A stretch of 13,722 nt of DNA from a virus. Taxonomy: Duplodnaviria > Heunggongvirae > Uroviricota > Caudoviricetes. The position numbers and the translations under genes are program-made. Below are positions 2,791-13,081 of this stretch, in pieces; positions within the stretch are counted from its first letter, which is position 1; every line of letters starts with the position of its first letter. The notes under the pieces were generated by a model. The model was given only the letters and a program-made list of their open reading frames with translations, was not told the origin of the DNA and searched no databases. Location of the stretch: positions 1 to 13,722 of IMG/VR virus record IMGVR_UViG_2778261570_000018. The stretch is one strand, 5' to 3'.

Positions 2791-3444
2791 CTATCCCTTC
2801 TTGAAATCAAAGTTGCTTGCGATAGCCTGGAAGGTGCCTCCAGCCTTGAAATCAATATTTTCGTCGGCTGTCACAGTAATGTTTTTGCCATTAACGCTGA
2901 TGTTATCGGCTGATTTGACGTTAACACTCCCTCCCGCATTCACTACTACATCAGCCGGACCAATGATGTATATCTGCCCTGATTCATTCATTCCAATCCT
3001 TGAGCCTGCTGCCGTATTCGCTATTTCATATCCACCGCCAGCCGTTCGCACTTCGAGCACATTGTTGCGGTGAATCACGAAATCTTTTGTCGCCGAAAAT
3101 TGCGGGCGGGGAGGCGCTCCGTCTACTTCTGGTGGCGTCCAGCCGCTACCATTGCCTGACGCCTCCGGCGCGACGTTTGGTACTCCGCCAGGCGCATCCT
3201 GAGCTGCGCCAACTATCATTGGGCGTCTGGTATCAATTCGACCATTAACATCCAGATAAGGAAACTCTACCCATACCAGGTCGCCTTTTACTGTAGGTAC
3301 AAAAGCGTTTCCGATGGGTAACAGGTATTCCGCCCAGGGTAGATCGTCATCAGGAACGCCATTCCAGTCAGGTAAAACACGGACTTGAGCACGCATAAGC
3401 CCTGCCGGGTGCACAGTTCCAACAATTTGCGCTCTACGCTTCAT
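2791..3444 (-). CDS. Phage baseplate spike protein, gpV/gp5-like (N-terminal OB-fold plus C-terminal beta-helix-like repeats)
   Basis: N-terminus GLMRAQVRVLPDWNGVPDDDLPWAEYLLPIGNAFVPTVKGDLVWVEFPYLDVNGRIDTRRPMIVGA fits the gpV/gp5/VgrG OB-fold pattern. C-terminus has G/N/V-rich repeats (VVVNAGGSVNVKSADNISVNGKNITVTADENIDFKAGG). The ATG overlaps the upstream stop as ATGA. Confidence 0.55.
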   Translation of the reverse strand: MKRRAQIVGTVHPAGLMRAQVRVLPDWNGVPDDDLPWAEYLLPIGNAFVPTVKGDLVWVEFPYLDVNGRIDTRRPMIVGAAQDAPGGVPNVAPEASGNGSGWTPPEVDGAPPRPQFSATKDFVIHRNNVLEVRTAGGGYEIANTAAGSRIGMNESGQIYIIGPADVVVNAGGSVNVKSADNISVNGKNITVTADENIDFKAGGTFQAIASNFDFKKG

Positions 3445-4421
3445 TTGTTCGGCACTCCCAATATCATTCGTGTTGTGTAGCCTACGCGGTCTTCAAAGTG
3501 CGCAACATTTTTTACTATCAGCTTACGGGGCATTGATTCATCAATGCGGTTTTCCTGGTCATAGCGGTATACGATAATCTCTATCACCATTCCCGGTTTT
3601 ATATCAGGATTGCCTGCGACTTCTATATCCATTTTGGGGACGAGAGACAGCTGCATATTGCGAAGAGTTTCCATATCAGAGTCGGATATATAACGCACTG
3701 GGAGTGAGCTATCGCCATATTCGACGTAGCCATCGGTCATGGAATACCCAACAAAACGATATTGATTCTTTGCTGTTGTCGCATGTTCCTGTTGGAGTAG
3801 GCGCATTTTGGACAAAGTGTATTCTGCTTTAGGGTTATTCCCCTCGTAGGTAAATGATGGCGTTTGCTTCATCAGATCAGCCAGGGTGTAAAAGTTAAAT
3901 TCCCCCCGGCATACCCAACATAATGCACCTTTGTCTCGCGCTATCTCCGAAAGCATTTTTGACGGTTTGTCACCGGCATTCAGATGATATGTAACTGCGC
4001 GTTTTAGCACGCTGCTGGTAATTTTAAGTTTGCCGGAATATGCCTTGAATATAGCGTCTGGTGTTTTGTTGGTATGTAAATTTGTGCGCGGGGAGGGGAT
4101 CTTAAACCTGCGCACGTCTTCACTGACAGCAATAACGGTAACAACATCACCAGCCAGCATTGCAGACGTAACAAAGAAATCTGTTTTAAAAGTGCCTGCA
4201 TTACCGTTTGGATCGCCCATTTCAGCCACCAGCGATGCACCGTATTTGGCTTTCCAGTCATCAATTACGGTGCCGGTAGCGTCATGAATTTCCAGTTTTA
4301 GCAAAGGGGCTTTGAGGCTGGTTTTTTCTACATATACTGCGGTAAAAATCCAGTCTCGTGGCACTTTGTTATCGTTAATGAGCACTGACTGTAGAAAATA
4401 TTGTTGTAACTCCTGGGCCAC
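3441..4421 (-). CDS. Hypothetical protein, 326 aa, in the tail/baseplate-like operon (possible hub-type protein; function not established)
   Basis: Long ORF with GTG start at 4421, 3 nt after the upstream stop, preceded by GGGGTGA. Its stop overlaps the spike gene start (ATGA). No family motif recognised with confidence. Confidence 0.55.
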   Translation of the reverse strand: MAQELQQYFLQSVLINDNKVPRDWIFTAVYVEKTSLKAPLLKLEIHDATGTVIDDWKAKYGASLVAEMGDPNGNAGTFKTDFFVTSAMLAGDVVTVIAVSEDVRRFKIPSPRTNLHTNKTPDAIFKAYSGKLKITSSVLKRAVTYHLNAGDKPSKMLSEIARDKGALCWVCRGEFNFYTLADLMKQTPSFTYEGNNPKAEYTLSKMRLLQQEHATTAKNQYRFVGYSMTDGYVEYGDSSLPVRYISDSDMETLRNMQLSLVPKMDIEVAGNPDIKPGMVIEIIVYRYDQENRIDESMPRKLIVKNVAHFEDRVGYTTRMILGVPNK

Positions 4422-4424
4422 TTA

Positions 4425-5192
4425 TCACCCCATAGATATCGAGGTTTCGGTAATAATACGTTTTGCGTCCAACTCCCATGCTGTGATCACGTCTGCAATC
4501 ACACTTATCGGCGCTTGTGTGGCATAAATACGCTCTTCTCCAATTGGTGCTGAAACATCCGTAAAGCCGACTTCTTTGGCATCCTGTATCGAGCAAATCA
4601 ACGGGACCGGGACACGAACAAGGTGAGTGGTGGCTTCAAATTGTGTACCTGTCATCAGGCGAAGCCGTGCGCCCAGCGAATTACACATCAGACTCATGGT
4701 CGCTTTATCAGTTGCCATTAACGTAACGTCATACGTCAGAATGGCCTGGGTGTATTCCAGTTCTGCTAAAGGCATTCCGGTATCCGGTTCGCAAAAACTG
4801 GCTACTTTTTTGCGGTCAATCTGCTGATCATCGTTGATATAATTGATATCCATAGTGCGTGAGATATTGACCAGGGGGAGAGCATCCCGGTTAATGTTCT
4901 GGTTTTCAGGTTTTCTCCCTTGCCCGGCATTTGCGCGACGAACTGCTTTAAGAAACTCGATCGCATTGTCGAAACGGGCCACATAGACACGCTCTGCTGG
5001 TGGACGATTCAGGAATGACGCAAAGCGTTTTTCTTCCGGCGCGGGGGCCACCAGTAAGATATCAGAAAAAATGTTGCTGATTAGCGTCGCAAACGCGTTA
5101 TCCACGTTTTCAAAGCCCGTGGTCTGGAATTTTCCTGTGCGTGAGGTTTGCCATTCACCTGTTCGCGCCAGGAGGGTTTTATTTGAAGTCAT
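4425..5192 (-). CDS. Hypothetical protein, 255 aa, in the tail/baseplate-like operon
   Basis: ATG at 5192 overlaps the upstream stop (ATGA). Uninterrupted ORF with position in a tightly coupled operon. No recognisable motif. Confidence 0.55.
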   Translation of the reverse strand: MTSNKTLLARTGEWQTSRTGKFQTTGFENVDNAFATLISNIFSDILLVAPAPEEKRFASFLNRPPAERVYVARFDNAIEFLKAVRRANAGQGRKPENQNINRDALPLVNISRTMDINYINDDQQIDRKKVASFCEPDTGMPLAELEYTQAILTYDVTLMATDKATMSLMCNSLGARLRLMTGTQFEATTHLVRVPVPLICSIQDAKEVGFTDVSAPIGEERIYATQAPISVIADVITAWELDAKRIITETSISMG

Positions 5193-5980
5193 TCGATCAC
5201 TCCGTTTTGAGTCGTATCAAAATTCCTGGCAGGTATGCAGTAGTAAAGCGAACCAACATGTTGTGTGCCGTAGCTAAAAATACGGTGCACGTACCACCAG
5301 CGGCGGGCTACGCCGTTTACCATCTCTTCATTCCATTCAAGAATTGATCCGACGGGGACTTTATTTGCTGCAATACGCAGAATCAGAACATCATCGGTTA
5401 AGCCATCCTGCTCACCGTCTGCGTCAATCGCATGGAAAGAGTCACGCCCGTCCGGGTTATCCAGCACATAAACGATTTCAGGTTCCTGGTAAGTCAGTTC
5501 GCGCTGGTTGTTATCCAGTTCAGTGAATGACTCTTCTCCTGTTTCGTCGCTGACTACCCCATATGTGCCAACATCTGGTCGATATAAGAGAGCCTGAAAC
5601 GCGTCTGGGCTGGATTCAATAATCAGCATCCAGTCTGCGCGGATTTGGTCGTTAAAGGCTTTATGCCCGTTATAGCGTGCTTTTAACTGTGGAGTCGGTT
5701 CTCTGCCAGCCAGGGAAGATGGAAGTATGGCTATATCTGATTCGCCAGCATCCGGAGTAAGGCCACCGTTGCTATCAGCAAAATTATCATGGCTATCAGC
5801 TTTGGCGGCGGGTTGCTCTTCCAGAATGCTGAATGAATCCGAACCGGTATTGCCATGTTCCGGCGCGCCTCCTGCATTCGCTTCAATCGGCGCTGGCGTT
5901 TCTCTCTGCGTGCTGTCATGTTCTGACTCCTTACTTGCCAGGTTTGCATCGTCAGCAAACCATTCGTCAAAACGGCCCAT
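5189..5980 (-). CDS. Hypothetical acidic protein, about 263 aa, first gene of the tail/baseplate-like operon (start ATG 5980; ORF-track TTG 5992 unlikely)
   Basis: GAGG sits 6 nt upstream of ATG 5980. The N-terminal half or so is D/E/S/G-rich low complexity; the C-terminal part appears globular (WWYVHRIFSYG...). Confidence 0.55.
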   Translation of the reverse strand: MGRFDEWFADDANLASKESEHDSTQRETPAPIEANAGGAPEHGNTGSDSFSILEEQPAAKADSHDNFADSNGGLTPDAGESDIAILPSSLAGREPTPQLKARYNGHKAFNDQIRADWMLIIESSPDAFQALLYRPDVGTYGVVSDETGEESFTELDNNQRELTYQEPEIVYVLDNPDGRDSFHAIDADGEQDGLTDDVLILRIAANKVPVGSILEWNEEMVNGVARRWWYVHRIFSYGTQHVGSLYYCIPARNFDTTQNGVIE

Positions 5981-6074
5981 AAGCATCCTCAAAGGTCGAT
6001 CTGTCAGGTATCGAAAGGAAGATTTTCGGGAGATTGTGATTTTGGATGAAGGAGGGGGAATTCATAAAATGCAC

Positions 6075-6142: not shown

Positions 6143-6445
6143 ATGACCAAAAAAATTAACATAAAGGATTTCAGGGATGCGTGGCTTGATGATTTTTTTG
6201 AATTTTCAACACCACATAGAAAGATACCTCCTGATATTCATATGACATTGTCACGGAAGTTGGACATTATCAATGCCGCAACTACCTGTAATGATTTAAG
6301 ATCACCACCAGGTAATCGGTATGAGGAACTGTCAGGGAAGCTAAATGGCTATTCATCAGTAAGGGTGAATAAGCAATATAGGTTAATTTTTAAGTGGGTT
6401 AACGGAAAGGCCGAGGACTTGTATCTCGACCCTCACAAATACTAA
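6143..6445 (+). CDS. higB: HigB-family toxin (Rts1 HigB / killer-protein type, RelE/ParE superfamily)
   Basis: 100 aa. C-terminal pattern EELSGKLNGYSSVRVNKQYRLIFKWVNGKAEDLYLDPHKY parallels Rts1 HigB (...LKGDREGYWSITVRANWRITFQFINGD..L..EDYH as recalled). Toxin-first gene order with a downstream HTH antitoxin. Confidence 0.8.
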   Translation: MTKKINIKDFRDAWLDDFFEFSTPHRKIPPDIHMTLSRKLDIINAATTCNDLRSPPGNRYEELSGKLNGYSSVRVNKQYRLIFKWVNGKAEDLYLDPHKY

Positions 6446-6515
6446 AACAGATACCCGGTTACGAACCGGGTTCTGACCAGAGTCCACTTAATACGCACGC
6501 TAGTAAGGGCAAAAA

Positions 6516-6854
6516 ATGAAACAGGCAACCAGAAAACCGACGACCGTAGGTGATATCCTGCTGTACGAATACCTGGAGCCGTTAGAGCTGAAGATCAACG
6601 AGTTAGCAGAAATACTTCATGTTCATCGTAACACCGTAAGTGCTCTTGTTAATAATAATCGTAAGCTAACGATGGATATGGCATATCGCCTGGCAAAAGC
6701 ATTCGATACTTCTGTAGATTTTTGGATTAATCTTCAGACCGCAGTAGATCTGTGGGAAGTCGAAAATGATATGCGCGTTCAGGAAGAGTTAAGTCGTATC
6801 AATACTGCTGAAAAATTTATTTCTCAGCGGAACCTGAATAAAAAAGCAGCCTGA
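6516..6854 (+). CDS. higA: HigA-family antitoxin (XRE-type HTH, addiction-module antidote)
   Basis: 112 aa. GDILLYEYLEPLELKINELAEILHVHRNTVSALVNNNRKLTMDMAYRLAKAFDTSVDFWINLQ matches the HigA antidote HTH pattern. TAAGGG is 6 nt upstream of ATG 6516. Confidence 0.8.
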   Translation: MKQATRKPTTVGDILLYEYLEPLELKINELAEILHVHRNTVSALVNNNRKLTMDMAYRLAKAFDTSVDFWINLQTAVDLWEVENDMRVQEELSRINTAEKFISQRNLNKKAA

Positions 6855-6873
6855 TATAGTAAAACACATACAA

Positions 6874-6905
6874 AAAGCCCACTTAGCAAGTGGGCTTTCC
6901 TTTGT
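6874..6905 (+). terminator. Intrinsic terminator after higBA-1
   Basis: Stem aaagcccact (6874-6883), loop tagca, stem agtgggcttt (6889-6898), then cctttgtaatt. Confidence 0.55.
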
Positions 6906-6910
6906 AATTA

Positions 6911-7270
6911 ATGAACATTAAACCCATCCGTACAGAACAAGATTATGAGGCCGCACTGCGTGCGGTCGAACCGATGTTCGATAACGAACCGGAAATGAAT
7001 ACTCCGGAAGGTGATTTCTTTGAGGTTATGAGTCTTCTCATTGAGGAGTACGAGAAAAAACATTACCCAATTGAGCCACCATCACCTATTGAGGCCATTA
7101 AATTCCGTATGGAACAGCAAGGGCTGACCGTGAAGGATCTGGAACCGGCAATTGGTAAGTCAAACCGTGTTTACGAAGTGCTTAATGGGACACGAAATTT
7201 GACGTTACCTATGATTCGTCGTTTACATGCCCAGTTTGGTATTCCACTGGAAAGCCTGGTTGGCGTTTGA
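6911..7270 (+). CDS. Stand-alone HigA-like antitoxin/regulator of the E. coli YgjM (K-12 HigA) type, C-terminal HTH
   Basis: 119 aa. C-terminal GLTVKDLEPAIGKSNRVYEVLNGTRNLTLPMIRRLHAQFGIPLESL parallels K-12 HigA (GLTLSDLPEIGSKSMVSRVLSGKRKLTLEHAKKLATRFGISPALF as recalled). N-terminal EQDYEAALRAVEPMF parallels EEQYTQALELVDHLL. No cognate toxin gene is adjacent. Confidence 0.7.
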   Translation: MNIKPIRTEQDYEAALRAVEPMFDNEPEMNTPEGDFFEVMSLLIEEYEKKHYPIEPPSPIEAIKFRMEQQGLTVKDLEPAIGKSNRVYEVLNGTRNLTLPMIRRLHAQFGIPLESLVGV

Positions 7271-7275
7271 GTTTT

Positions 7276-7299
7276 GCGGTCTGGATGACCGCTGTTTTT
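7276..7299 (+). terminator. Intrinsic terminator after the HigA-like gene
   Basis: Stem gcggtc (7276-7281), loop tggat, stem gaccgc (7287-7292), then tgttttt. Confidence 0.55.
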
Positions 7300-7333
7300 A
7301 TAAAAAATAGATACTAGAAATTTGGTAGCATAT

Positions 7334-8113
7334 ATGAGTACAGATTCATCAGTAAAGAAGACATCTGAATCAGATAAAGAAAATGAGTCCGTTGTTGATT
7401 CCGTCAAGAATACAATGGAATATGTTATAAAAGACAAAGTATTTAATAAGCTTTTTGCATATATTTTTATATCTTTTCTGGTTGTTAACTGGAGAGATAT
7501 ATTAATTTTGTTCAAATCAAAAGAAGATGTTCTATATACTCTGTCAATAGTTTTTACCGGTGAAAAAATACAATTTCTTGATGGCGAGATTTTACCTCCT
7601 TGGTTTGCCCACTTTTTCTTGCCGTTTTTCTATGGTGTGATTGCGTCGATTGTGGCACCAGTAATTACACTTGCGGTATCTTGCATTACAACTAAGGTGT
7701 ACTATAAAATAAAAATTTTGGACAATAAAACAGACGAAAACGAGAAAGAGAAATTAGCAAAAAGAGCCAAGAAAAGAGCTGAGCGTGAAATAGAGGCTAG
7801 CTATAGCCAACAAAAGCTGGATGAAAGAAAAAAAGAACTGGAAGACATTTTAAACAAAATAGAAGATGAAAAAGAAAAATATGATAAAATGAAAGAAAGG
7901 TTTGATGATGCCATAACGCTTACATATAAAAATATTCACATTTTGCCTACTCTGTATGAGAATAGGAAATGTAAAATTGAAACTCCGCAGGATTTATATG
8001 ATTTTATTGCAGCAATAAAGAAAACATCATTCTATAGTACTGATTTTAATGAATTGTTCTCTGATATTTCTCGATTGTATTCTGAAATGCAAACTGATTT
8101 ATCAGAAAAGTGA
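7334..8113 (+). CDS. Hypothetical membrane protein with two predicted TM helices and a long charged coiled-coil segment (AT-rich, likely foreign gene)
   Basis: 259 aa from ATG 7334 (the ORF-track start at 7322 is TTG). Hydrophobic segments LFAYIFISFLVVNW and FFLPFFYGVIASIVAPVITLAVSCI, then a K/E-rich heptad-like stretch (NEKEKLAKRAKKRAEREIEASYSQQKLDERKKELEDILNKIEDEKEKYDKMKERF). Coding region is visibly AT-rich compared with its flanks. Confidence 0.6.
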   Translation: MSTDSSVKKTSESDKENESVVDSVKNTMEYVIKDKVFNKLFAYIFISFLVVNWRDILILFKSKEDVLYTLSIVFTGEKIQFLDGEILPPWFAHFFLPFFYGVIASIVAPVITLAVSCITTKVYYKIKILDNKTDENEKEKLAKRAKKRAEREIEASYSQQKLDERKKELEDILNKIEDEKEKYDKMKERFDDAITLTYKNIHILPTLYENRKCKIETPQDLYDFIAAIKKTSFYSTDFNELFSDISRLYSEMQTDLSEK

Positions 8114-8114
8114 A

Positions 8115-8137
8115 AGCCTGGCATAGACCACCAGGCT
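8115..8137. terminator. Hairpin between convergent genes (weak candidate bidirectional terminator)
   Basis: Stem agcctgg (8115-8121), 9-nt loop, stem ccaggct (8131-8137). No tight U-tract on either strand. Confidence 0.3.
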
Positions 8138-8148
8138 ATATGTGTGGT

Positions 8149-9342
8149 TTATGCTTTTTTTACATACGCCATAAACATTTTTTCAGCATGTTCTTGTGGC
8201 GTTCCTGCCATGACAAGCGCATCAATGAACGCCTGCTTCTTCAGTGCGAACTGATCGGCCAGGCGTTGCTGAAGCTCCTTGTTTTTCTGTTTCTCACGTT
8301 GCAACGCCGCTTCTTTTGCTGCCGCCCGTTTTTTCTGTGCGTCTGACAACTTTCTGGCCTTGGTCAGTTGGTCACGTAGCTTGTCAATCTTGCCGTTGTC
8401 CTTTGCCAGTTTTGTGCTTAAAGCGGCCTGGCGCTTCTGATAGAGCCTCCATTCTCGCTTGGCAGCGTCAACGTTCGTTTTACTGCTACGATTGCGATTA
8501 AACTCCTTCTCGTCTTCTTTTGAGAAGTGTTTGGTTGTACGGCGGCGATCGTCACCAAATGCAATTTGCGTTGCAGCCTTTTGTAGCGCACGAGCAATAC
8601 TCATTTGCCAACTGGCGGACTGTAACCGCGTCATTGAGTGGATCACGTGTTTACAGGCGACGCCTTGCAGCTTCGGGTTGCGAACTTTTGGATAGGCGTA
8701 TTCTTTTGGCGGTGCCAGGGCAAAGTTACCCGCAGTGGCGATGTAACGATACCAGTATTGATGACGACCACAGTCACAATCGAAAGACACTCGCCCGGCG
8801 CACAGTGATTTAGTGATTTTGAGAGCTGATTTATCGTCTTCTGCGATGTCATCAACCATCTGATCCCATTCTTCAAAGCGTATCCGGACGATATGGTGCT
8901 GGTGGACGGATATATCCGATGCTTCTACGCGGATATTAATCACATTGTGGCGAAGAGATACGGGTGTAGCTCTTTTGATACCAGATCCGTCATCCACGGC
9001 GTTATTTGCACGCTTAATATCGATAGCCTGGCTGGATGCCACCAGCTGGGCGTATGTGATGCCAGCCGTCTTGCTGTCATATTTTTCGCGCGTTTTACTC
9101 CGTAGCTTTTCGAAGCCTTTCAGATCGTCTCGCGTAAAGAACGTGCCGCCTTTTTTCTTCCCTAACTTGAGAATATCTTCGACGGATTTGTTCCTAAGTC
9201 TGCCTGGCGTCAGCGTCCGGTGAGCTTGTCGGCGCTTACGGGTTTGTTCTTTCCTGATAAGGTCGAATAAACGCGTGAAGTCCTTAGAGGACAGACCGTC
9301 AGTGATATAGCGCCCGTCCTGGTTTTTCAGGAAATCAGGCAT
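8149..9342 (-). CDS. Hypothetical basic protein, 397 aa, with central Cys/His cluster and C-terminal coiled coil (possible nucleic-acid-binding zinc-finger protein)
   Basis: ATG at 9342 with GGAG 7 nt upstream, overlapping the upstream gene stop by 8 nt (ATGCCTGA). K/R-rich N-terminus, CAGRVSFDCDCGRHQYWYRY...GVACKHVIH cluster, and a K/Q/A/E-rich C-terminal region of roughly 100 aa. Confidence 0.6.
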   Translation of the reverse strand: MPDFLKNQDGRYITDGLSSKDFTRLFDLIRKEQTRKRRQAHRTLTPGRLRNKSVEDILKLGKKKGGTFFTRDDLKGFEKLRSKTREKYDSKTAGITYAQLVASSQAIDIKRANNAVDDGSGIKRATPVSLRHNVINIRVEASDISVHQHHIVRIRFEEWDQMVDDIAEDDKSALKITKSLCAGRVSFDCDCGRHQYWYRYIATAGNFALAPPKEYAYPKVRNPKLQGVACKHVIHSMTRLQSASWQMSIARALQKAATQIAFGDDRRRTTKHFSKEDEKEFNRNRSSKTNVDAAKREWRLYQKRQAALSTKLAKDNGKIDKLRDQLTKARKLSDAQKKRAAAKEAALQREKQKNKELQQRLADQFALKKQAFIDALVMAGTPQEHAEKMFMAYVKKA

Positions 9343-9664
9343 TTTCTATCTCCGGTTCCGCGCTCGCGTAATCACGGATCTTGTTCCTCAGCCATGCCAC
9401 ATCAGGAAGAGTTAACGTGGTCCCGGCGGGCATTTCTTCCATTTCTGACTCATGGCCCACCAGCACCCGGAATACCCAGCGCAAATCTGCATTGCCATAC
9501 GCCCTGTAGGCTGCAAGGTCTGAACGATATACTTCATCAATCTTTATCGTGTACTGGAAATTATCAGAGTGATACTCCGATACCCGCTTAATCATTTCCT
9601 GGTGAAACAGCGCACGAAAAATATCGTCTTCAATGTACCTATCGTCGAGTCTGCTATAGCCCAT
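9335..9664 (-). CDS. Small protein with LysM-like / phage tail protein X (gpX)-like C-terminal region
   Basis: 109 aa, ATG at 9664 with GAGGGG 7 nt upstream. YTIKIDEVYRSDLAAYRAYGNADLRWVFRVLVGHE..EMPAGTTLTLPDV resembles the P2 gpX pattern (GDTLDAICVRYYGR...VLAANPGLA...LPHGTAVELPDV as recalled). Assignment is tentative. Confidence 0.4.
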   Translation of the reverse strand: MGYSRLDDRYIEDDIFRALFHQEMIKRVSEYHSDNFQYTIKIDEVYRSDLAAYRAYGNADLRWVFRVLVGHESEMEEMPAGTTLTLPDVAWLRNKIRDYASAEPEIENA

Positions 9665-9725
9665 AACAAAGCCCCTCAGTCATAACCTGGGGGAAACTGT
9701 ATGTAGGGTGTGAAATGCGAGAAAG

Positions 9726-9751
9726 CAGCGTCACCGGGCCTGGTGACGCTG
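9726..9751 (-). terminator. Stem-loop downstream of higA-2 (weak terminator or attenuator before the gpX-like gene)
   Basis: Perfect 10-bp stem cagcgtcacc (9726-9735) / ggtgacgctg (9742-9751) with a 6-nt loop. On the minus strand it is followed by a C/U-rich stretch (cuuucucgc) rather than a clean U-run. Confidence 0.35.
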
Positions 9752-9756
9752 TGAAG

Positions 9757-10038
9757 TTATGCGTGGAAAAATAATGGACGGATGTTTGGGCGAGCGGTTT
9801 GCGAAGCAACCCAAAGCTCATACTGAGATTGCATACCGGTCCACATTTCGGCACTGGTTCCAAGAGCGGACTCCAGACGAAGTGCCATATCAGCAGAAAT
9901 GCCTGCTTTTTCGTTCAGAATTCGGGAAAGTGCCGTGCGAGTAATGCCTAATGCAGCAGCGGCGTCTGTGACTGACATGTCTCCCAAATATTCACGAAGA
10001 ACCGCGCCAGGATGCGCGGGATTATGCATACGACTCAT
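9757..10038 (-). CDS. higA: HigA-family antitoxin (XRE-type HTH), second module
   Basis: [72 protein letters not shown] parallels Rts1 HigA (HPGE...SRLL..K......[21 protein letters not shown] as recalled). ATG 10038 is preferred, with GAGGAA overlapping the higB-2 stop; the ORF-track start at 10050 is TTG. Confidence 0.8.
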
Positions 10039-10046
10039 AGTGTTCC

Positions 10047-10328
10047 TCAATGATAATCCTGATAGTCAACTAGAATTGCGTCTTCTCCTTCAAATCGGAA
10101 GGTAAGTCGCCAGTTACCGTTTACCGATATTGCCCAGTGACCTTTAAGGTCCGCCCCCTTTAGAGGGTGCAATTCCCATCCAGGCGCAGACATATCGTCC
10201 GGGCGTTTAGCTGTATTAAGAGCAGTCAATTGAATGCGTAGCTTAACCGCATGTTTGGCCTGAATGCCTGCGGTTGAACCTGTCTTGAAAAAGCGTTCAA
10301 GCCCTTTATGGCGAAATGACTTAATCAA
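10047..10328 (-). CDS. higB: HigB-family toxin (Rts1 HigB type), second module; likely TTG start at 10328
   Basis: Translation from TTG 10328 gives [18 protein letters not shown]...[43 protein letters not shown], closely paralleling Rts1 HigB (MIKSFKHKGLKLLFEKG...HPLKGDREGYWSITVRANWRITFQFINGDAYILNYEDYH as recalled). GGATGG lies 7 nt upstream. The ORF-track start at 10391 adds a non-conserved 21-aa extension. Confidence 0.8.
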
Positions 10329-10354
10329 AATAATTCCATCCGTGCGCGTAACCT

Positions 10355-10391
10355 GTGTATATACACTACACGCAGAGGGAGCGAAATGCAA
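10355..10391 (-). promoter_or_regulatory. Candidate higBA-2 promoter with a 12-bp perfect palindrome operator
   Basis: On the minus strand: TTGCAT (plus 10386-10391), 17-bp spacer, TAGTGT (plus 10363-10368). Perfect palindrome GTGTATATACAC (10355-10366) overlaps the -10 and predicted transcription start. Confidence 0.4.
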
Positions 10392-10664
10392 GCACTATCC
10401 GTATAGACAGAGTTTCTTCGCCGCCCTGGAATTTATTGACTGTCAACAAGTGACTTTCATTAATCTTAAGGCATGGACCAGCTCGATAGTGAGCTGGGTG
10501 TTATTTACCGATCGAATGGATTCGAAAAGATGAATATTTTTAATAAGCTGATTGATTTATTGAATAAATTCATTAGTGCTTCTTTAACTCAGCAGGTATC
10601 CACGTCAGTGTTTTTGTTACTCTTCTACCTGGTATTGAGGGAGTTAACAAAGCTACTAATGTGA

Positions 10665-11318
10665 TCAAAGTATCACGGTATCTTCATCAACTTCTTTCCC
10701 AGCCAGTGACTTTGGCTGGGAACTGCCTGCTTTAACTTTTTCATGCCCAATAATGGAAAGGAACGAAGTGAGTATGCCTGTTTTTTGCTCTTTCTCGACT
10801 GTACCGGTCATCTGCTCTACGTAATCCGCACTGGCAACGTTGTGGTATACGGTCGCGTAGCAACACAGGATCATCAGAATATGCTCCGGCCTGATATCCT
10901 GCCAGTTCACCCTGTAGACTTCTTCTCCGTTACCGTTGTATTCGGTATCAACGATAGAGTCGGGGATTTCGAAAGCACCTTTGTTATTTTGCGGCAGGGA
11001 TAATAGCTTCTGGAGTTTTAACTCTCTGTATCTTTCCATCCCGACGATGATTGCTGCTCTGCCATCGGCATGACGGGTCTTGAGAGTCACCTGGCTTGCT
11101 CCGGTGCCAGCGGAGATCGTTGGCGTAATTTCGTCTACCAGTACCTTAAATTTGCTTTTCCGCAGGGCTGCTATAGCTGGAGGAATTTTTTGCTTTTGCT
11201 CCAATGCTGACGCGGGAAGGGGTTTTACTTCGTTAATAATGAGAGCACCGTCTTTCAGTATTGCAGTGAGCATTTGAGGCTTGCTGGTGGTCAGGCTGAA
11301 TATTGCGATCTTTTCCAT
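10665..11318 (-). CDS. Hypothetical protein, about 217 aa, unknown function (start ATG 11318)
   Basis: ORF with GGAGAAAGGA immediately upstream of ATG 11318. The ORF-track N-terminal extension to 11360 runs into the terminator hairpin and is not credible. No family recognised. Confidence 0.55.
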   Translation of the reverse strand: MEKIAIFSLTTSKPQMLTAILKDGALIINEVKPLPASALEQKQKIPPAIAALRKSKFKVLVDEITPTISAGTGASQVTLKTRHADGRAAIIVGMERYRELKLQKLLSLPQNNKGAFEIPDSIVDTEYNGNGEEVYRVNWQDIRPEHILMILCCYATVYHNVASADYVEQMTGTVEKEQKTGILTSFLSIIGHEKVKAGSSQPKSLAGKEVDEDTVIL

Positions 11319-11344
11319 TGTCCTTTCTCCACGGATGACGGATA

Positions 11345-11370
11345 CAAAAAAAGGCCGCACATGGCGGCCT
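11345..11370 (-). terminator. Canonical rho-independent terminator on the minus strand, immediately upstream of the RBS of the 217-aa gene
   Basis: Minus-strand RNA: stem aggccgc, loop caugu, stem gcggccu, then seven U (plus 11352-11370 hairpin, A-run 11346-11352). Lies about 25 nt upstream of ATG 11318. Confidence 0.65.
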
Positions 11371-11601
11371 GCTTTGGCGTTATGACTCCCTACCGCGCTT
11401 CGGCTGAAAGTTAATCGTCAAAAGAACCTTCAACGGGAGCCGTTAGCGCGATGGATTATGTGCAGTTTGTGATTTCCAAAATAGTGTCAACTACTTTTTG
11501 TGGATTTTATTTTTTGTCCGAAATTTGGCCTAAATCATGTTGATTTGGCTGATTATTTTTATAACATAAAACTTCATTTTGTTTACATGAAGGACGGTGT
11601 A

Positions 11602-12216
11602 GTGAAGTTAAGGGTTTTAGGGACCGCGCTCGCGGCTATGTTGGGATGCGTATCTGTTAATACTGCCAATGCAACTGCGTTACCTGCAAAGTATTGGGCT
11701 GGTGTGAAAGTGTTGCGGAACGCTGAAAAAGGCAATACAGCTGATGATATTTTCAAGTTTTGCCAAAAAGAAAATATCCCTCTGCACCCGGTTGAGCCGT
11801 ACTTTACAGGAAAGAATGATTTCTGTGTGTTTGCGTATACCGCAGACCAAACAGATAAGGCTATACGCAAGACAGGGTATTCTACTCAAGACACTATGGC
11901 GTCCTTAAGTAAAAACTGGTTGCAGTTTGAGGTTTACCGTAGTGAAGGAATGGGAGAGCTATTGCAGCCACTGTATATGCTGGCGTTAGTTCCGGAAGGG
12001 CAGCAGTTCCTTATTCGAAAAGGAATGCTTCGGAAAAGCGATGTAACCGGATTCAATAACACGATGGAGCTTGAACGCTCAATGAAGCAAAAGCAAGCGC
12101 CTAAGCAGCCAACAGCCGAATGTATTAGCAGCGAGATACAAAAGGCATTAAGCGAGCAGCCTTACATTGATCGTGGTGTGGCGGAAATGGCTGCCAAAAT
12201 GAAGTGTTCCAATTAA
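11602..12216 (+). CDS. Hypothetical secreted/periplasmic protein with N-terminal signal peptide (start GTG 11602; alternative ATG 11587)
   Basis: AAGGA (11590-11594) is 7 nt upstream of GTG 11602. N-terminus MKLRVLGTALAAMLGCVSVNTANA is a typical signal peptide (ANA cleavage site or a weak lipobox). Mature part contains several Cys. The ORF-track start at 11500 lacks an RBS. Confidence 0.55.
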   Translation: MKLRVLGTALAAMLGCVSVNTANATALPAKYWAGVKVLRNAEKGNTADDIFKFCQKENIPLHPVEPYFTGKNDFCVFAYTADQTDKAIRKTGYSTQDTMASLSKNWLQFEVYRSEGMGELLQPLYMLALVPEGQQFLIRKGMLRKSDVTGFNNTMELERSMKQKQAPKQPTAECISSEIQKALSEQPYIDRGVAEMAAKMKCSN

Positions 12217-12259: not shown

Positions 12260-13081
12260 ATGTTCTTTATGAAAAATGGAAAAAGATTTTCCGCAACAAT
12301 GCTTGCTACTATTGTCGCTCTTTTCGTTCCCACATTCACCTTTGCTTATGATTTTAGCAAAATTGACTGCAATGCCCCTAAAACCAGGCAGATGTTAATC
12401 GATGATTATAATGAACTACTCAAGGACGATCAGGAAGCAATCACTGTAATTGATGCTTATAATCAGATTAATGAAATAAGCGAAAAAAGTAAGCTCCAAT
12501 GTTTAGGCACGTATGAGTTCTCAGATGGAAGTGCGCTTAGAGTTAGATATAAGTTATATTTAAATAGCCTCGGCACACCCATATATGAATTTGCTCCAGT
12601 TGAGGAATTAACGCAGGATGATGTAAGCGCATCTATTCAAAATATCCCTGCAACCACAGCGAGTAGGACTGGGGGGAATGAAGAAACGTATGCCTGCAAG
12701 GTGGCTGTAACTTACAAGGGGGAGCGTTCTAACTATATGGGGGATTCCGGAACATGGGATCGTGTGATTACTGACTATGGCACTTATTTTTCATGGGATT
12801 TACCACGCGGAAACCGAGGCAACAGCACAGGTCAGGATGCTTTTAGTGGCATGGACGAATCAAAGCCTGTATTAGAAAATCAGCTAGTGAGAAAGGAAAC
12901 TGAAAAAGATGGTAGCGTGGTTGATGAGTTTAGGACAGAAGTGAGTTATGGAGATAAACAACCGGTACATAAGTTTGTATATGCCCGTAGAATAAAACCT
13001 ACAGGAACGAGAGAATATTATGTCACTGATTTGACGGACAAGCGGGCATTTATGTTTCTGAATTGCCAGCAAGATTCGTAA
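12260..13081 (+). CDS. Hypothetical secreted protein with N-terminal signal peptide
   Basis: GGAG is 8 nt upstream of ATG 12260. N-terminus MFFMKNGKRFSATMLATIVALFVPTFTFA. AT-rich coding region, 43 nt downstream of the preceding gene (likely co-transcribed). Confidence 0.6.
   Translation: MFFMKNGKRFSATMLATIVALFVPTFTFAYDFSKIDCNAPKTRQMLIDDYNELLKDDQEAITVIDAYNQINEISEKSKLQCLGTYEFSDGSALRVRYKLYLNSLGTPIYEFAPVEELTQDDVSASIQNIPATTASRTGGNEETYACKVAVTYKGERSNYMGDSGTWDRVITDYGTYFSWDLPRGNRGNSTGQDAFSGMDESKPVLENQLVRKETEKDGSVVDEFRTEVSYGDKQPVHKFVYARRIKPTGTREYYVTDLTDKRAFMFLNCQQDS

Follow-up and report, generated by a model that had tools for sequence, protein, structure and literature searches.

Genes 26 and 25 of a D6-like, P1-related phage-plasmid: a predicted baseplate plug and a possible tail-completion protein

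The overlapping pair described here almost certainly consists of genes 26 and 25, two late morphogenesis genes of a phage-plasmid that is D6-like and related to P1. The pair lies in a 13,722-nucleotide stretch of viral DNA (the window), and at the DNA level it shares 98.1% identity with annotated phage D6 genes (69466-70981), where the two ORFs are orf75 and orf74 and carry the notes ‘similar to P1 gene 26’ and ‘similar to P1 gene 25’. The window operon keeps the order mat-26-25-7-24-6-5 found in P1 and D6 (Table 1). These are already known and annotated P1/D6 tail-assembly genes and their pairing is ordinary; what had been flagged is a piece of a P1/D6-type tail operon and no new regulatory or defence module. 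P1 gene 25 itself is among the few amber-defined P1 morphogenesis genes to whose products virion proteomics and two near-atomic structures have assigned neither location nor role. An invariant CxC-x38-CxH motif, a SWIM-like core, conserved positive charge and a 26-25-7 triad now offer testable handles on its product, gp25.

Table 1 Features of the gene pair and of the surrounding tail operon, in window coordinates
Feature	Position	Strand	Basis or remark
mat homolog, first gene of the conserved operon	10665..11360	-	PHROG 1837, E 2e-94; D6 orf78 ‘similar to P1 gene mat’
GAGGGG Shine-Dalgarno-like site, gene 26	9672..9677	-	7 nt 5′ of ATG; from sequence
Gene 26 homolog, 109 aa	9335..9664	-	ATG start; ORF listing and PHROG/PDB matches
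GGAG Shine-Dalgarno-like site, gene 25	9350..9353	-	7 nt 5′ of ATG; from sequence
8-nt overlap ATGCCTGA	9335..9342	-	Gene 25 start and gene 26 stop, read from sequence
Gene 25 homolog, 397 aa	8149..9342	-	ATG start; P1 ‘tail stability’ protein family
gp25 residues 1-90, basic helical N-terminal region, net +12	9073..9342	-	AlphaFold2 model and charge count
gp25 residues 91-262, conserved core	8557..9072	-	Predicted three-stranded beta-sheet and putative SWIM-like zinc-knuckle domain
CxC-x38-CxH motif (C189, C191, C230, H232)	8647..8778	-	Invariant in 126 diverse relatives
gp25 residues 263-397 and stop codon, basic (net +17)	8149..8556	-	Poorly conserved, mostly one long helix
Terminator-like hairpin	8115..8137	-	Directly 3′ of gene 25 stop, between convergent genes
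Gene 7 homolog	5189..5992	-	PHROG 1906, E 6e-116; D6 orf69
Gene 24 homolog, tail terminator	4425..5192	-	PHROG 1767, E 4e-113; D6 orf68
Gene 6 homolog, baseplate hub (T4 gp27 / P2 gpD class)	3441..4421	-	PHROG 1390, E 2.6e-144; D6 orf67 ‘similar to P1 gene 6’
Gene 5 homolog, spike	2791..3444	-	PHROG 430, E 7.5e-42; D6 orf66

The ORF listing places the two genes, with an 8-nt overlap, at exactly the limits reported in the initial annotation. The plus strand at the junction (9335-9342) reads tcaggcat, and because the corresponding minus-strand octamer, ATGCCTGA, holds the start codon of the 397-aa ORF (9342..9340) as well as the TGA codon that ends the 109-aa ORF (9337..9335), the overlap is real. 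The good ribosome-binding sites claimed for both genes are likewise present, as GGAG and GAGGGG. By sequence criteria the two ORFs qualify as real genes rather than chance reading frames, given their PHROG matches (E 2.3e-36 and 2e-196), their near identity to the D6 genes and the 444 clusters of gp25 relatives described below. The hairpin following gene 25 has a 9-bp stem with five GC pairs and a T-rich tail. Neither a sigma-70 scan nor a comparison of the regions preceding mat, 26 and 7 for a common late-promoter (Lpa) motif gave a convincing promoter for 26-25. That both genes lie on the minus strand went unmentioned in the initial annotation.

Homology searches identify the 109-aa product as a P1 Gp26 / T4 gp53-like baseplate plug, predicted to fasten the wedges to the hub. 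It matches PHROG 1269 ‘baseplate wedge subunit’ (E 2.3e-36) and the solved P1 Gp26 (PDB 9ay5_S/9vzk) at E 1e-16, improving to E 2.9e-30 with a family profile of 22 homologs. In P1, six copies of the Gp26 plug link the wedges to the hub (PMC12810830, bioRxiv 10.1101/2025.07.21.665459). P1 Gp26 is 125 aa long as compared to 109 aa for the window protein, and both genes are followed downstream by those for the hub and spike. The initial annotation had likened this protein to the LysM-containing tail protein X, which was right in kind only: P1 Gp26 has a relative in T4 gp53 and, at a greater distance, in the LysM-like ‘glue’ proteins of contractile injection systems (the P2 gpX class). The family profile gives weak matches to a LysM-domain protein of a contractile injection system (7aeb_M, E 0.17) and, at E 0.18, to the baseplate wedge subunit 9f4a_AL. 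The Pfam scores for Phage_tail_X (PF05489; 13.2 bits against a cut-off of 22, E 0.067, residues 48-90) and Phage_gp53 (PF11246; 13.6 bits against a gathering threshold of 21, E 0.053) are both sub-threshold, and the protein is therefore no demonstrable gpX family member. The relation of P1 gp26 to T4 gp53 rests on HHpred for the P1 protein (PMC9024508). PADLOC returned only an E of 0.017 for the 109-aa protein, and searches of both products of the pair against NCBIfam, Pfam (E ≤ 10) and PADLOC gave no significant family.

By its sequence the 397-aa product is orthologous to gp25, the ‘tail stability’ protein of P1. Its residues 2-396 align with PHROG 1722 ‘tail protein’ at E 2e-196; identity reaches 98% with D6 orf74 and, by tblastn over residues 1-334, 57% with P1 gp25 (E 2e-113). 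The P1 protein (405 aa) is of the same length class, occupies the same place in its operon (26-25-7-24-6-5) and carries the same invariant CxC…CxH motif; it differs in the C-terminal ~60 residues. Relatives fall into 444 clusters at 50% identity, nearly all of them unnamed, and the source names retrieved for distant members all read ‘hypothetical protein’. Sequence searches of the PDB with the 397-aa protein and its family profile returned only noise (a pectin lyase at E 0.04; coiled-coil proteins), Foldseek with the full 397-aa model against the PDB gave nothing usable (best E 0.31), and among solved virion proteins no structural homolog was found. The sole PADLOC match, to PDC-S66 (E 0.0062, 14 bits), is not significant and covers the low-complexity helix. 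The initial annotation was correct that this protein does not resemble a hub: it matches no hub family, and the hub is a separate gene, the gene 6 homolog. The hub (4421..3441) that would be expected after a gpX-like gene lies further downstream, as does the spike, the gene 5 homolog (3444..2791). A tape-measure identity was also considered and rejected, as in P1 that role belongs to Sit, encoded at another location (PMC9024508).

The remaining operon genes have P1 counterparts. In the P1 cryo-EM model gp7 is the neck ‘stopper’ (PMC12810830), gp24 is the tail terminator (PMC12810830, PMC9024508), and gp6 matches T4 gp27 with an HHpred probability of 99% (PMC9024508). Copy numbers are low throughout, with six each of gp26, gp7 and gp24 and three each of gp6 and gp5 (PMC12810830). 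In the window, as in D6, a 2.1-kb opposite-strand island (6143-8113) parts gene 25 from gene 7; this island and the terminator-like hairpin are a D6 lineage trait that differs from P1, and in distant loci gene 7 normally adjoins gene 25.

This neighbourhood is conserved well beyond P1 and D6. In 28 distant loci the genes follow the order mat-26-25-7-24-6-5; the gp25-like proteins encoded there share 29-50% identity with P0160, a family member that has only 29% identity with the window protein. In a second clade of 80 loci, a gp26-like gene lies upstream in 69 and a PHROG 4597-like gene downstream in 77. A tightly packed triad of 26, 25 and either gp7 or PHROG 4597 is found in 108 distant loci. 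The 26-25 junction overlaps or has a gap of at most 10 nt in 82 of 95 distant loci, as does the junction between 25 and the next gene in 89 of 104. The pairing that the initial annotation left unexplained is accordingly a conserved one, set in an intact P1-type tail operon. A profile of 74 PHROG 4597 sequences matches the gp7 profile at E 2.9e-4 (probability 40%, 141 columns), suggesting that PHROG 4597 may be a gp7 homolog; a profile of two sequences gave no support for the relation.

As first described, the 397-aa protein is rich in lysine and arginine (pI 10.07, net charge +36) and contains a Cys/His cluster, F187-D-C189-D-C191-G-R-H194 and C230-K-H232-V-I-H235. The long coiled coil reported alongside it appears in the AlphaFold2 model as a single long C-terminal helix spanning residues 291-378. 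Among 126 diverse gp25 relatives, the four putative ligands C189, C191, C230 and H232 are 100% invariant, as are E214, P218, N222, G227 and K231. All three segments of the protein (Table 1) are net positive in 99% of these relatives, while the C-terminal third is poorly conserved in sequence. No mention of the CxC…CxH invariance, the three-segment basicity or the tightly packed triad was found in the literature searched.

The core may be likened to the SWIM zinc finger (Pfam PF04434; solved example ZSWIM8, PDB 9rwz). The CxCxnCxH ligand signature of SWIM is present in the 397-aa protein with a 38-residue spacer. PF04434 itself does not match the window protein even at E ≤ 10, and 8 of 52 gp25 relatives give sub-threshold matches (best E 0.0024), none reaching threshold. 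Typical SWIM domains separate the Cys pair from CxH by fewer residues than the 38 of gp25, which carry their own invariant E214, P218, N222 and G227. The gp25 motif also sits in a phage tail operon, unlike the usual SWIM context. A literature search on SWIM-containing virion proteins and ‘tail stability protein’ found nothing relevant.

Amber mutants of P1 gene 25 exist, and the gene is treated as a known essential, needed by P1 to form plaques, and annotated ‘tail stability’ (PMC10695390, PMC9024508). CRISPRi knock-down of the gene lowered plating only ~10-fold, which the authors attribute to an ineffective roadblock (PMC10695390). In CsCl-purified P1 virions, gp25 was detected by LC-MS/MS with 2 peptides and 8.4% coverage; gp7 and PmgG gave an equal peptide count, gp26, gp5 and PmgA were undetected, and the prohead protease, which may be non-structural, gave a similarly weak signal (PMC9024508). 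Both gp7 and PmgG are hexameric in the cryo-EM model (PMC12810830).

On these data we tentatively favor, at slightly less than an even chance, a reading in which gp25 is a low-copy, virion-associated component of tail completion or the neck. Tight operon packing, probably with translational coupling, would yield gp25 at near-equimolar levels with the other single-ring tail parts gp26, gp7, gp24, gp6 and gp5. The CxC-x38-CxH cluster would bind one zinc ion and thereby stiffen a small beta+SWIM core that may dock on a partner. The two basic parts of gp25, its N-terminal region and its long C-terminal helix, could occupy an asymmetric or flexible position, a candidate site being the lumen of the tube or neck beside the tape measure or the DNA end. 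A protein so placed would be lost from symmetrised cryo-EM maps. If gp25 were missing, the head-proximal tail end would be badly completed and the tails unstable. The sequence and model data establish the orthology, the operon setting, an invariant motif and conserved charge, along with a tentative resemblance in fold; zinc binding, location, partners and copy number are inferred. Against the tail-completion model stand the weak LC-MS/MS signal and the modest effect of the knock-down. A basic zinc finger with a long helix is equally typical of nucleic-acid-binding proteins, and the PDB contains no gp25 relative by sequence, profile or Foldseek comparison. Because gp26 lies at the tail end opposite to gp7 and gp24, gene order alone does not place gp25. 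A more specific version, which we consider unlikely though not negligible, makes the gp25 family an unrecognised, zinc-stabilised SWIM-type virion component of the P1 supergroup that occupies an asymmetric neck or tube-lumen site, touches the DNA end or tape measure and is absent from the P1 cryo-EM models. Were this the case, the 26-25-7 triad would be a conserved stoichiometric assembly cassette linking both tail ends.

A somewhat unlikely alternative casts gp25 as a non-structural assembly factor, transient in tail or neck assembly and leaving a virion trace by carry-over, a chaperone or catalyst in the manner of T4 gp51/gp57A or a tape-measure chaperone. P1 gp25 is missing from both cryo-EM models (PMC12810830; bioRxiv 10.1101/2025.07.21.665459), and those who recorded its two peptides proposed that it may ‘serve as co-factor for virion assembly’ (PMC9024508); the lack of a structural homolog among solved virion proteins and the poorly conserved C-terminal third are in line with this. 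However, its peptide count equals that of the hexameric gp7 and PmgG, and several true structural proteins were undetected in the same experiment (PMC9024508). In over 100 loci gene 25 is tightly packed with low-copy structural genes, which fits a stoichiometric component, and a chaperone acting on basic or neutral partners would not usually carry a strong basic charge conserved over its full length. Nucleic-acid binding by gp25 is possible. We see as quite unlikely, but consistent with several features, a role for gp25 as a virion protein that binds DNA at the packaged end in the portal or neck channel, needed for head completion and stable joining, perhaps injected with the DNA and analogous to T4 gp2. 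The pI and net charge, the basic character of 99% of relatives and the putative SWIM-type zinc knuckle suit such a role. So does gene position: in 89 of 104 loci gene 25 abuts the gene for the gp7 neck stopper or the one that takes its place, and the gp25-like gene of phages ABMM1 and Rb1 lies among head genes. T4 offers a parallel arrangement, with gene 53 (the gp26 homolog) beside genes 4, 2 and 3 for head closure, DNA end protector and tail terminator. This 53/4/2/3 order prompted a direct comparison of gp25 with T4 gp2, which was rejected as a homolog (hhalign probability 0.1%): T4 gp2 has 274 aa and zero cysteines, and shares with gp25 only its basic nature and its gene position beside a gp53-class gene and a terminator gene. 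The P1 phenotype is moreover annotated as a tail and not a head defect, and SWIM domains also mediate protein-protein contacts.

A reading that follows the initial annotation makes the 397-aa protein a regulatory or defence-type protein that binds nucleic acid, has no part in virion assembly and is paired with a gpX-like gene by chance or for an unexplained reason. Its basic composition, Cys/His cluster and long helix invited this view, a distant homolog in Xanthomonas phage Rb1 is auto-annotated ‘transcriptional regulator MvaT’, and toxin-antitoxin cassettes flank the pair in the window. Nonetheless, these cassettes are lineage-specific insertions that are missing or different in relatives, and neither PADLOC, Pfam nor NCBIfam gave a significant match. 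P1 gene 25 is known from amber mutants and annotated ‘tail stability’ (PMC10695390, PMC9024508), and over 100 distant phage loci keep the family at its place in a tail/neck/baseplate operon. The evidence lends no support to a regulatory or defence role, and we consider that reading extremely improbable. The 397-aa protein instead aligns full-length with PHROG 1722 and the P1 gp25 family within an intact tail operon, which is the finding the initial annotation had itself named as speaking against its interpretation.

The gene pair is a known one that already carries annotation. Across its 1.5-kb region it shares 98.1% identity with positions 69466-70981 of Escherichia phage D6, which is a P1-related phage-plasmid. 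Enterobacterial plasmid records supply another 283 matches to the region, and the records listed are mostly ~90-96 kb in size. In the D6 record, orf75 is a 'baseplate' gene similar to P1 gene 26 and orf74 a 'tail protein' gene similar to P1 gene 25. ORF coordinates and a direct reading of the sequence match exactly the limits (8149-9664) and 8-nt overlap reported in the initial annotation, and place the pair on the minus strand, which had not been specified. The overlap reads tcaggcat on the plus strand (9335-9342) and ATGCCTGA on the coding strand, and holds both the gene 25 ATG and the gene 26 TGA. Both ribosome binding sites were likewise found, with GGAG (9353..9350) and GAGGGG (9677..9672) each lying 7 nt 5' of the start codons of gene 25 and gene 26, respectively.

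The minus strand carries a complete P1-type late operon, beyond which lie an RdgC-like gene and two DNA methylase genes, and we firmly assign the pair to late morphogenesis. A gpX-class gene had been expected to precede the hub gene; the hub and spike genes are indeed downstream, with genes 25, 7, and 24 intervening. The gene 7 (stopper) homolog has a strongly acidic N-terminal extension of ~100 aa, which is missing from many distant gene 7 homologs of just 158-166 aa.

Features of the late operon, neighboring insertions, and distant PHROG 4597 genes (window positions unless a locus is named)
Feature	Position	Strand	Remark
mat	11360..10665	minus	P1-type late operon
HigB	10391..10047	minus	Pfam HigB-like, E 1e-20
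HigA	10050..9757	minus	HTH_3, E 4e-10
gene 26	9664..9335	minus	ORF, 109 aa
gene 25	9342..8149	minus	ORF, 397 aa
terminator-like hairpin, strong	8137-8115		3' of gene 25 stop codon, between convergent genes
263-aa coiled-coil protein	7322-8113	plus	PHROG 8191; island
HigA-like HTH protein genes, two	6516-6854; 6911-7270	plus	island
terminator-like hairpin, strong, bidirectional	6872-6900		13-bp stem, between the two HigA-like genes
RelE/HigB-like toxin gene	6143-6445	plus	island
gene 7	5992..5189	minus	P1-type late operon
gene 24	5192..4425	minus	P1-type late operon
gene 6 (hub)	4421..3441	minus	P1-type late operon
gene 5 (spike)	3444..2791	minus	P1-type late operon
PHROG 4597 gene, function not assigned	L003 5699-6247; L004 9884-10387		3' of gp25-like gene in two distant loci

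The small protein matches PHROG 1269 'baseplate wedge subunit' (E 2.3e-36) and the solved P1 Gp26 chain (PDB 9ay5, 9vzk; E 1e-16, improving to 2.9e-30 with a profile from 22 homologs). In P1, Gp26 is a six-copy 'plug' that holds hub and wedges together (PMC12810830; bioRxiv 10.1101/2025.07.21.665459), an assignment that rested on similarity to T4 gp53 (PMC9024508). Against Pfam, Phage_gp53 was sub-threshold (E 0.053), as was Phage_tail_X (E 0.067). The profile also matched, weakly, a LysM-domain protein from a contractile injection system (E 0.17) and, at E 0.18, a baseplate wedge subunit. The earlier 'gpX-like' description thus holds for the kind of protein but finds no significant support as an assignment to the gpX family.

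The large protein aligns over residues 2-396 with PHROG 1722 'tail protein' (E 2e-196), and shares 98% identity with D6 orf74 and, across residues 1-334, 57% with P1 gp25. An exhaustive HMMER search collected relatives in 444 clusters (50% identity level), most of them in the range of 350-450 aa; where a name is given, it is 'phage tail protein', 'tail stability protein', or 'hypothetical protein'. The basic character (pI 10.07, net charge +36) and the Cys/His cluster (FDC189DC191GRH and C230KH232VIH) are as initially described. When 126 diverse relatives are aligned, C189, C191, C230, and H232 are 100% invariant, as are G94, E214, P218, N222, G227, and K231; from this pattern, the first four may bind zinc. 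The 'SWIM-like' impression holds as a resemblance and not as formal Pfam membership: SWIM (PF04434) was the sole Pfam family matched repeatedly among 52 diverse members, in eight of them, with a best E of 0.0024 and no match above threshold. A confident AlphaFold2 model (pLDDT 85.7, pTM 0.74) predicts N-terminal helices, a three-stranded sheet (124-156), a helix-strand-helix unit bearing the CxC, a loop, a helix beginning at the CxH, and a single 88-residue helix (291-378). Sequence conservation is highest over residues 166-262 and poor in the C-terminal third; each of the protein's three segments carries a net positive charge in 99% of relatives. The member in Xanthomonas phage Rb1 (L004 8800-9879), located between a tape-measure-like lysin protein gene and a capsid gene, was deposited as 'transcriptional regulator MvaT', probably a mis-annotation caused by the basic C-terminal helix.

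Genes neighboring distant gp25 relatives from IMG/VR were then scanned. The first clade comprises 28 loci encoding proteins 29-50% identical to the distant family member P0160, which shares just 29% identity with the window protein, and retains the order mat-26-25-7-24-6-5; 27 loci have a gp26-like gene upstream, and a contig end cuts off the remaining one. In a second, deeper clade (80 loci, L164-L243), a gp26-like gene is upstream in 69 and a PHROG 4597-like gene (~170 aa) directly downstream in 77. Junctions are overlaps or gaps of ≤10 nt in 82/95 loci for 26->25 and in 89/104 for 25->next gene, the latter often a 4-nt ATGA overlap in the first clade. The pairing, initially considered unexplained, is that of a conserved tail operon. 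The same triad occurs in Acinetobacter phage ABMM1; Rb1 has the gp25-like and PHROG 4597 genes, with no gp26-like gene detectable. Triad surroundings vary by lineage, with hub and spike genes in P1/D6, tail-fibre genes before it in L164 and ABMM1, and the major capsid gene after it in ABMM1 and Rb1. Profile comparison of PHROG 4597 with gp7 (hhalign E 2.9e-4, probability 40%, 141 near-full-length columns) is only suggestive of a remote homolog of the P1 stopper; an earlier comparison using two sequences gave no support.

What gp25 does is the remaining interest, with the invariant, putatively zinc-knuckle-like motif and the conserved triad as testable leads. P1 gene 25 is treated as a known essential gene because amber mutants exist, and stands first (5') in a polycistronic unit that also includes 7, 24, 6, and 5 (PMC10695390). 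Its product is annotated 'tail stability' (PMC9024508, PMC10695390), and HHpred returned nothing above 50% (PMC9024508). Targeting either gene 25 or gene 26 by CRISPRi lowered the EOP to ~0.1, which the authors read as an ineffective roadblock (PMC10695390). A regulatory or defence protein, the role initially preferred to a structural one, is very improbable, since the protein aligns over its full length with an established morphogenesis protein and sits within an intact tail operon.

We tentatively favor, at somewhat under even odds, a low-copy, virion-associated tail-completion or neck component, because the operon tightly packs single-ring tail parts (3-6 copies in P1), suggesting matched output. 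CsCl-purified P1 virions yielded two gp25 peptides (8.4% coverage; PMC9024508, main text/Table S4), a count equal to those of gp7 and PmgG, both hexamers in the cryo-EM model, whereas several true P1 structural proteins gave no peptides in the same analysis, and this argues for a virion component. The phenotype class also fits, since gp7 is likewise annotated 'tail stability' and gp24 'baseplate or tail stability'. Both cryo-EM studies, which assign gp7 as hexameric stopper, gp24 as terminator, gp6 as hub, and gp26 as plug, lack gp25 in their models (PMC12810830; bioRxiv 10.1101/2025.07.21.665459). Placement at an asymmetric or flexible site, e.g. in the lumen or neck channel, would account for the lack of gp25 in symmetrised maps; partners and location are what we infer. 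A factor acting only in assembly is a less likely, still plausible reading. A DNA-end-binding head-completion or pilot protein working like T4 gp2 appears unlikely: gene order does run parallel to that of T4 genes 53/4/2/3, but homology between gp25 and T4 gp2 is absent.

The pair seems isolated in the window because an island, a HigB/HigA cassette, and a hairpin surround it, which probably led to its being seen as a stand-alone module. The 2.1-kb island (6143-8113), on the plus strand opposite to the operon, parts gene 25 from gene 7; D6 has it too (orf70-73), whereas P1 and nearly all distant loci lack it, gene 25 abutting the next gene. Whole-window blastn against D6 revealed three differences. 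The HigB/HigA cassette (9729-10602), which lies between mat and gene 26 on the same strand as the operon, takes the place of 203 bp that in D6 carry two tiny ORFs; a perfect 10-bp hairpin (9726-9751) spans its left boundary (9728/9729). The 263-aa gene is a divergent allele in the slot of D6 orf73, without blastn similarity over 7352-8040, and looks like a hypervariable moron allele. Segment 11639-12232 is an insertion (ORF 11500-12216, 238 aa). The simB-like region at 12260-13081 (273 aa) is only 88% identical to that of D6. Positions 24-215 hold the 3' terminus of a glutaminyl-tRNA synthetase gene carried by the phage, corresponding to D6 orf62.
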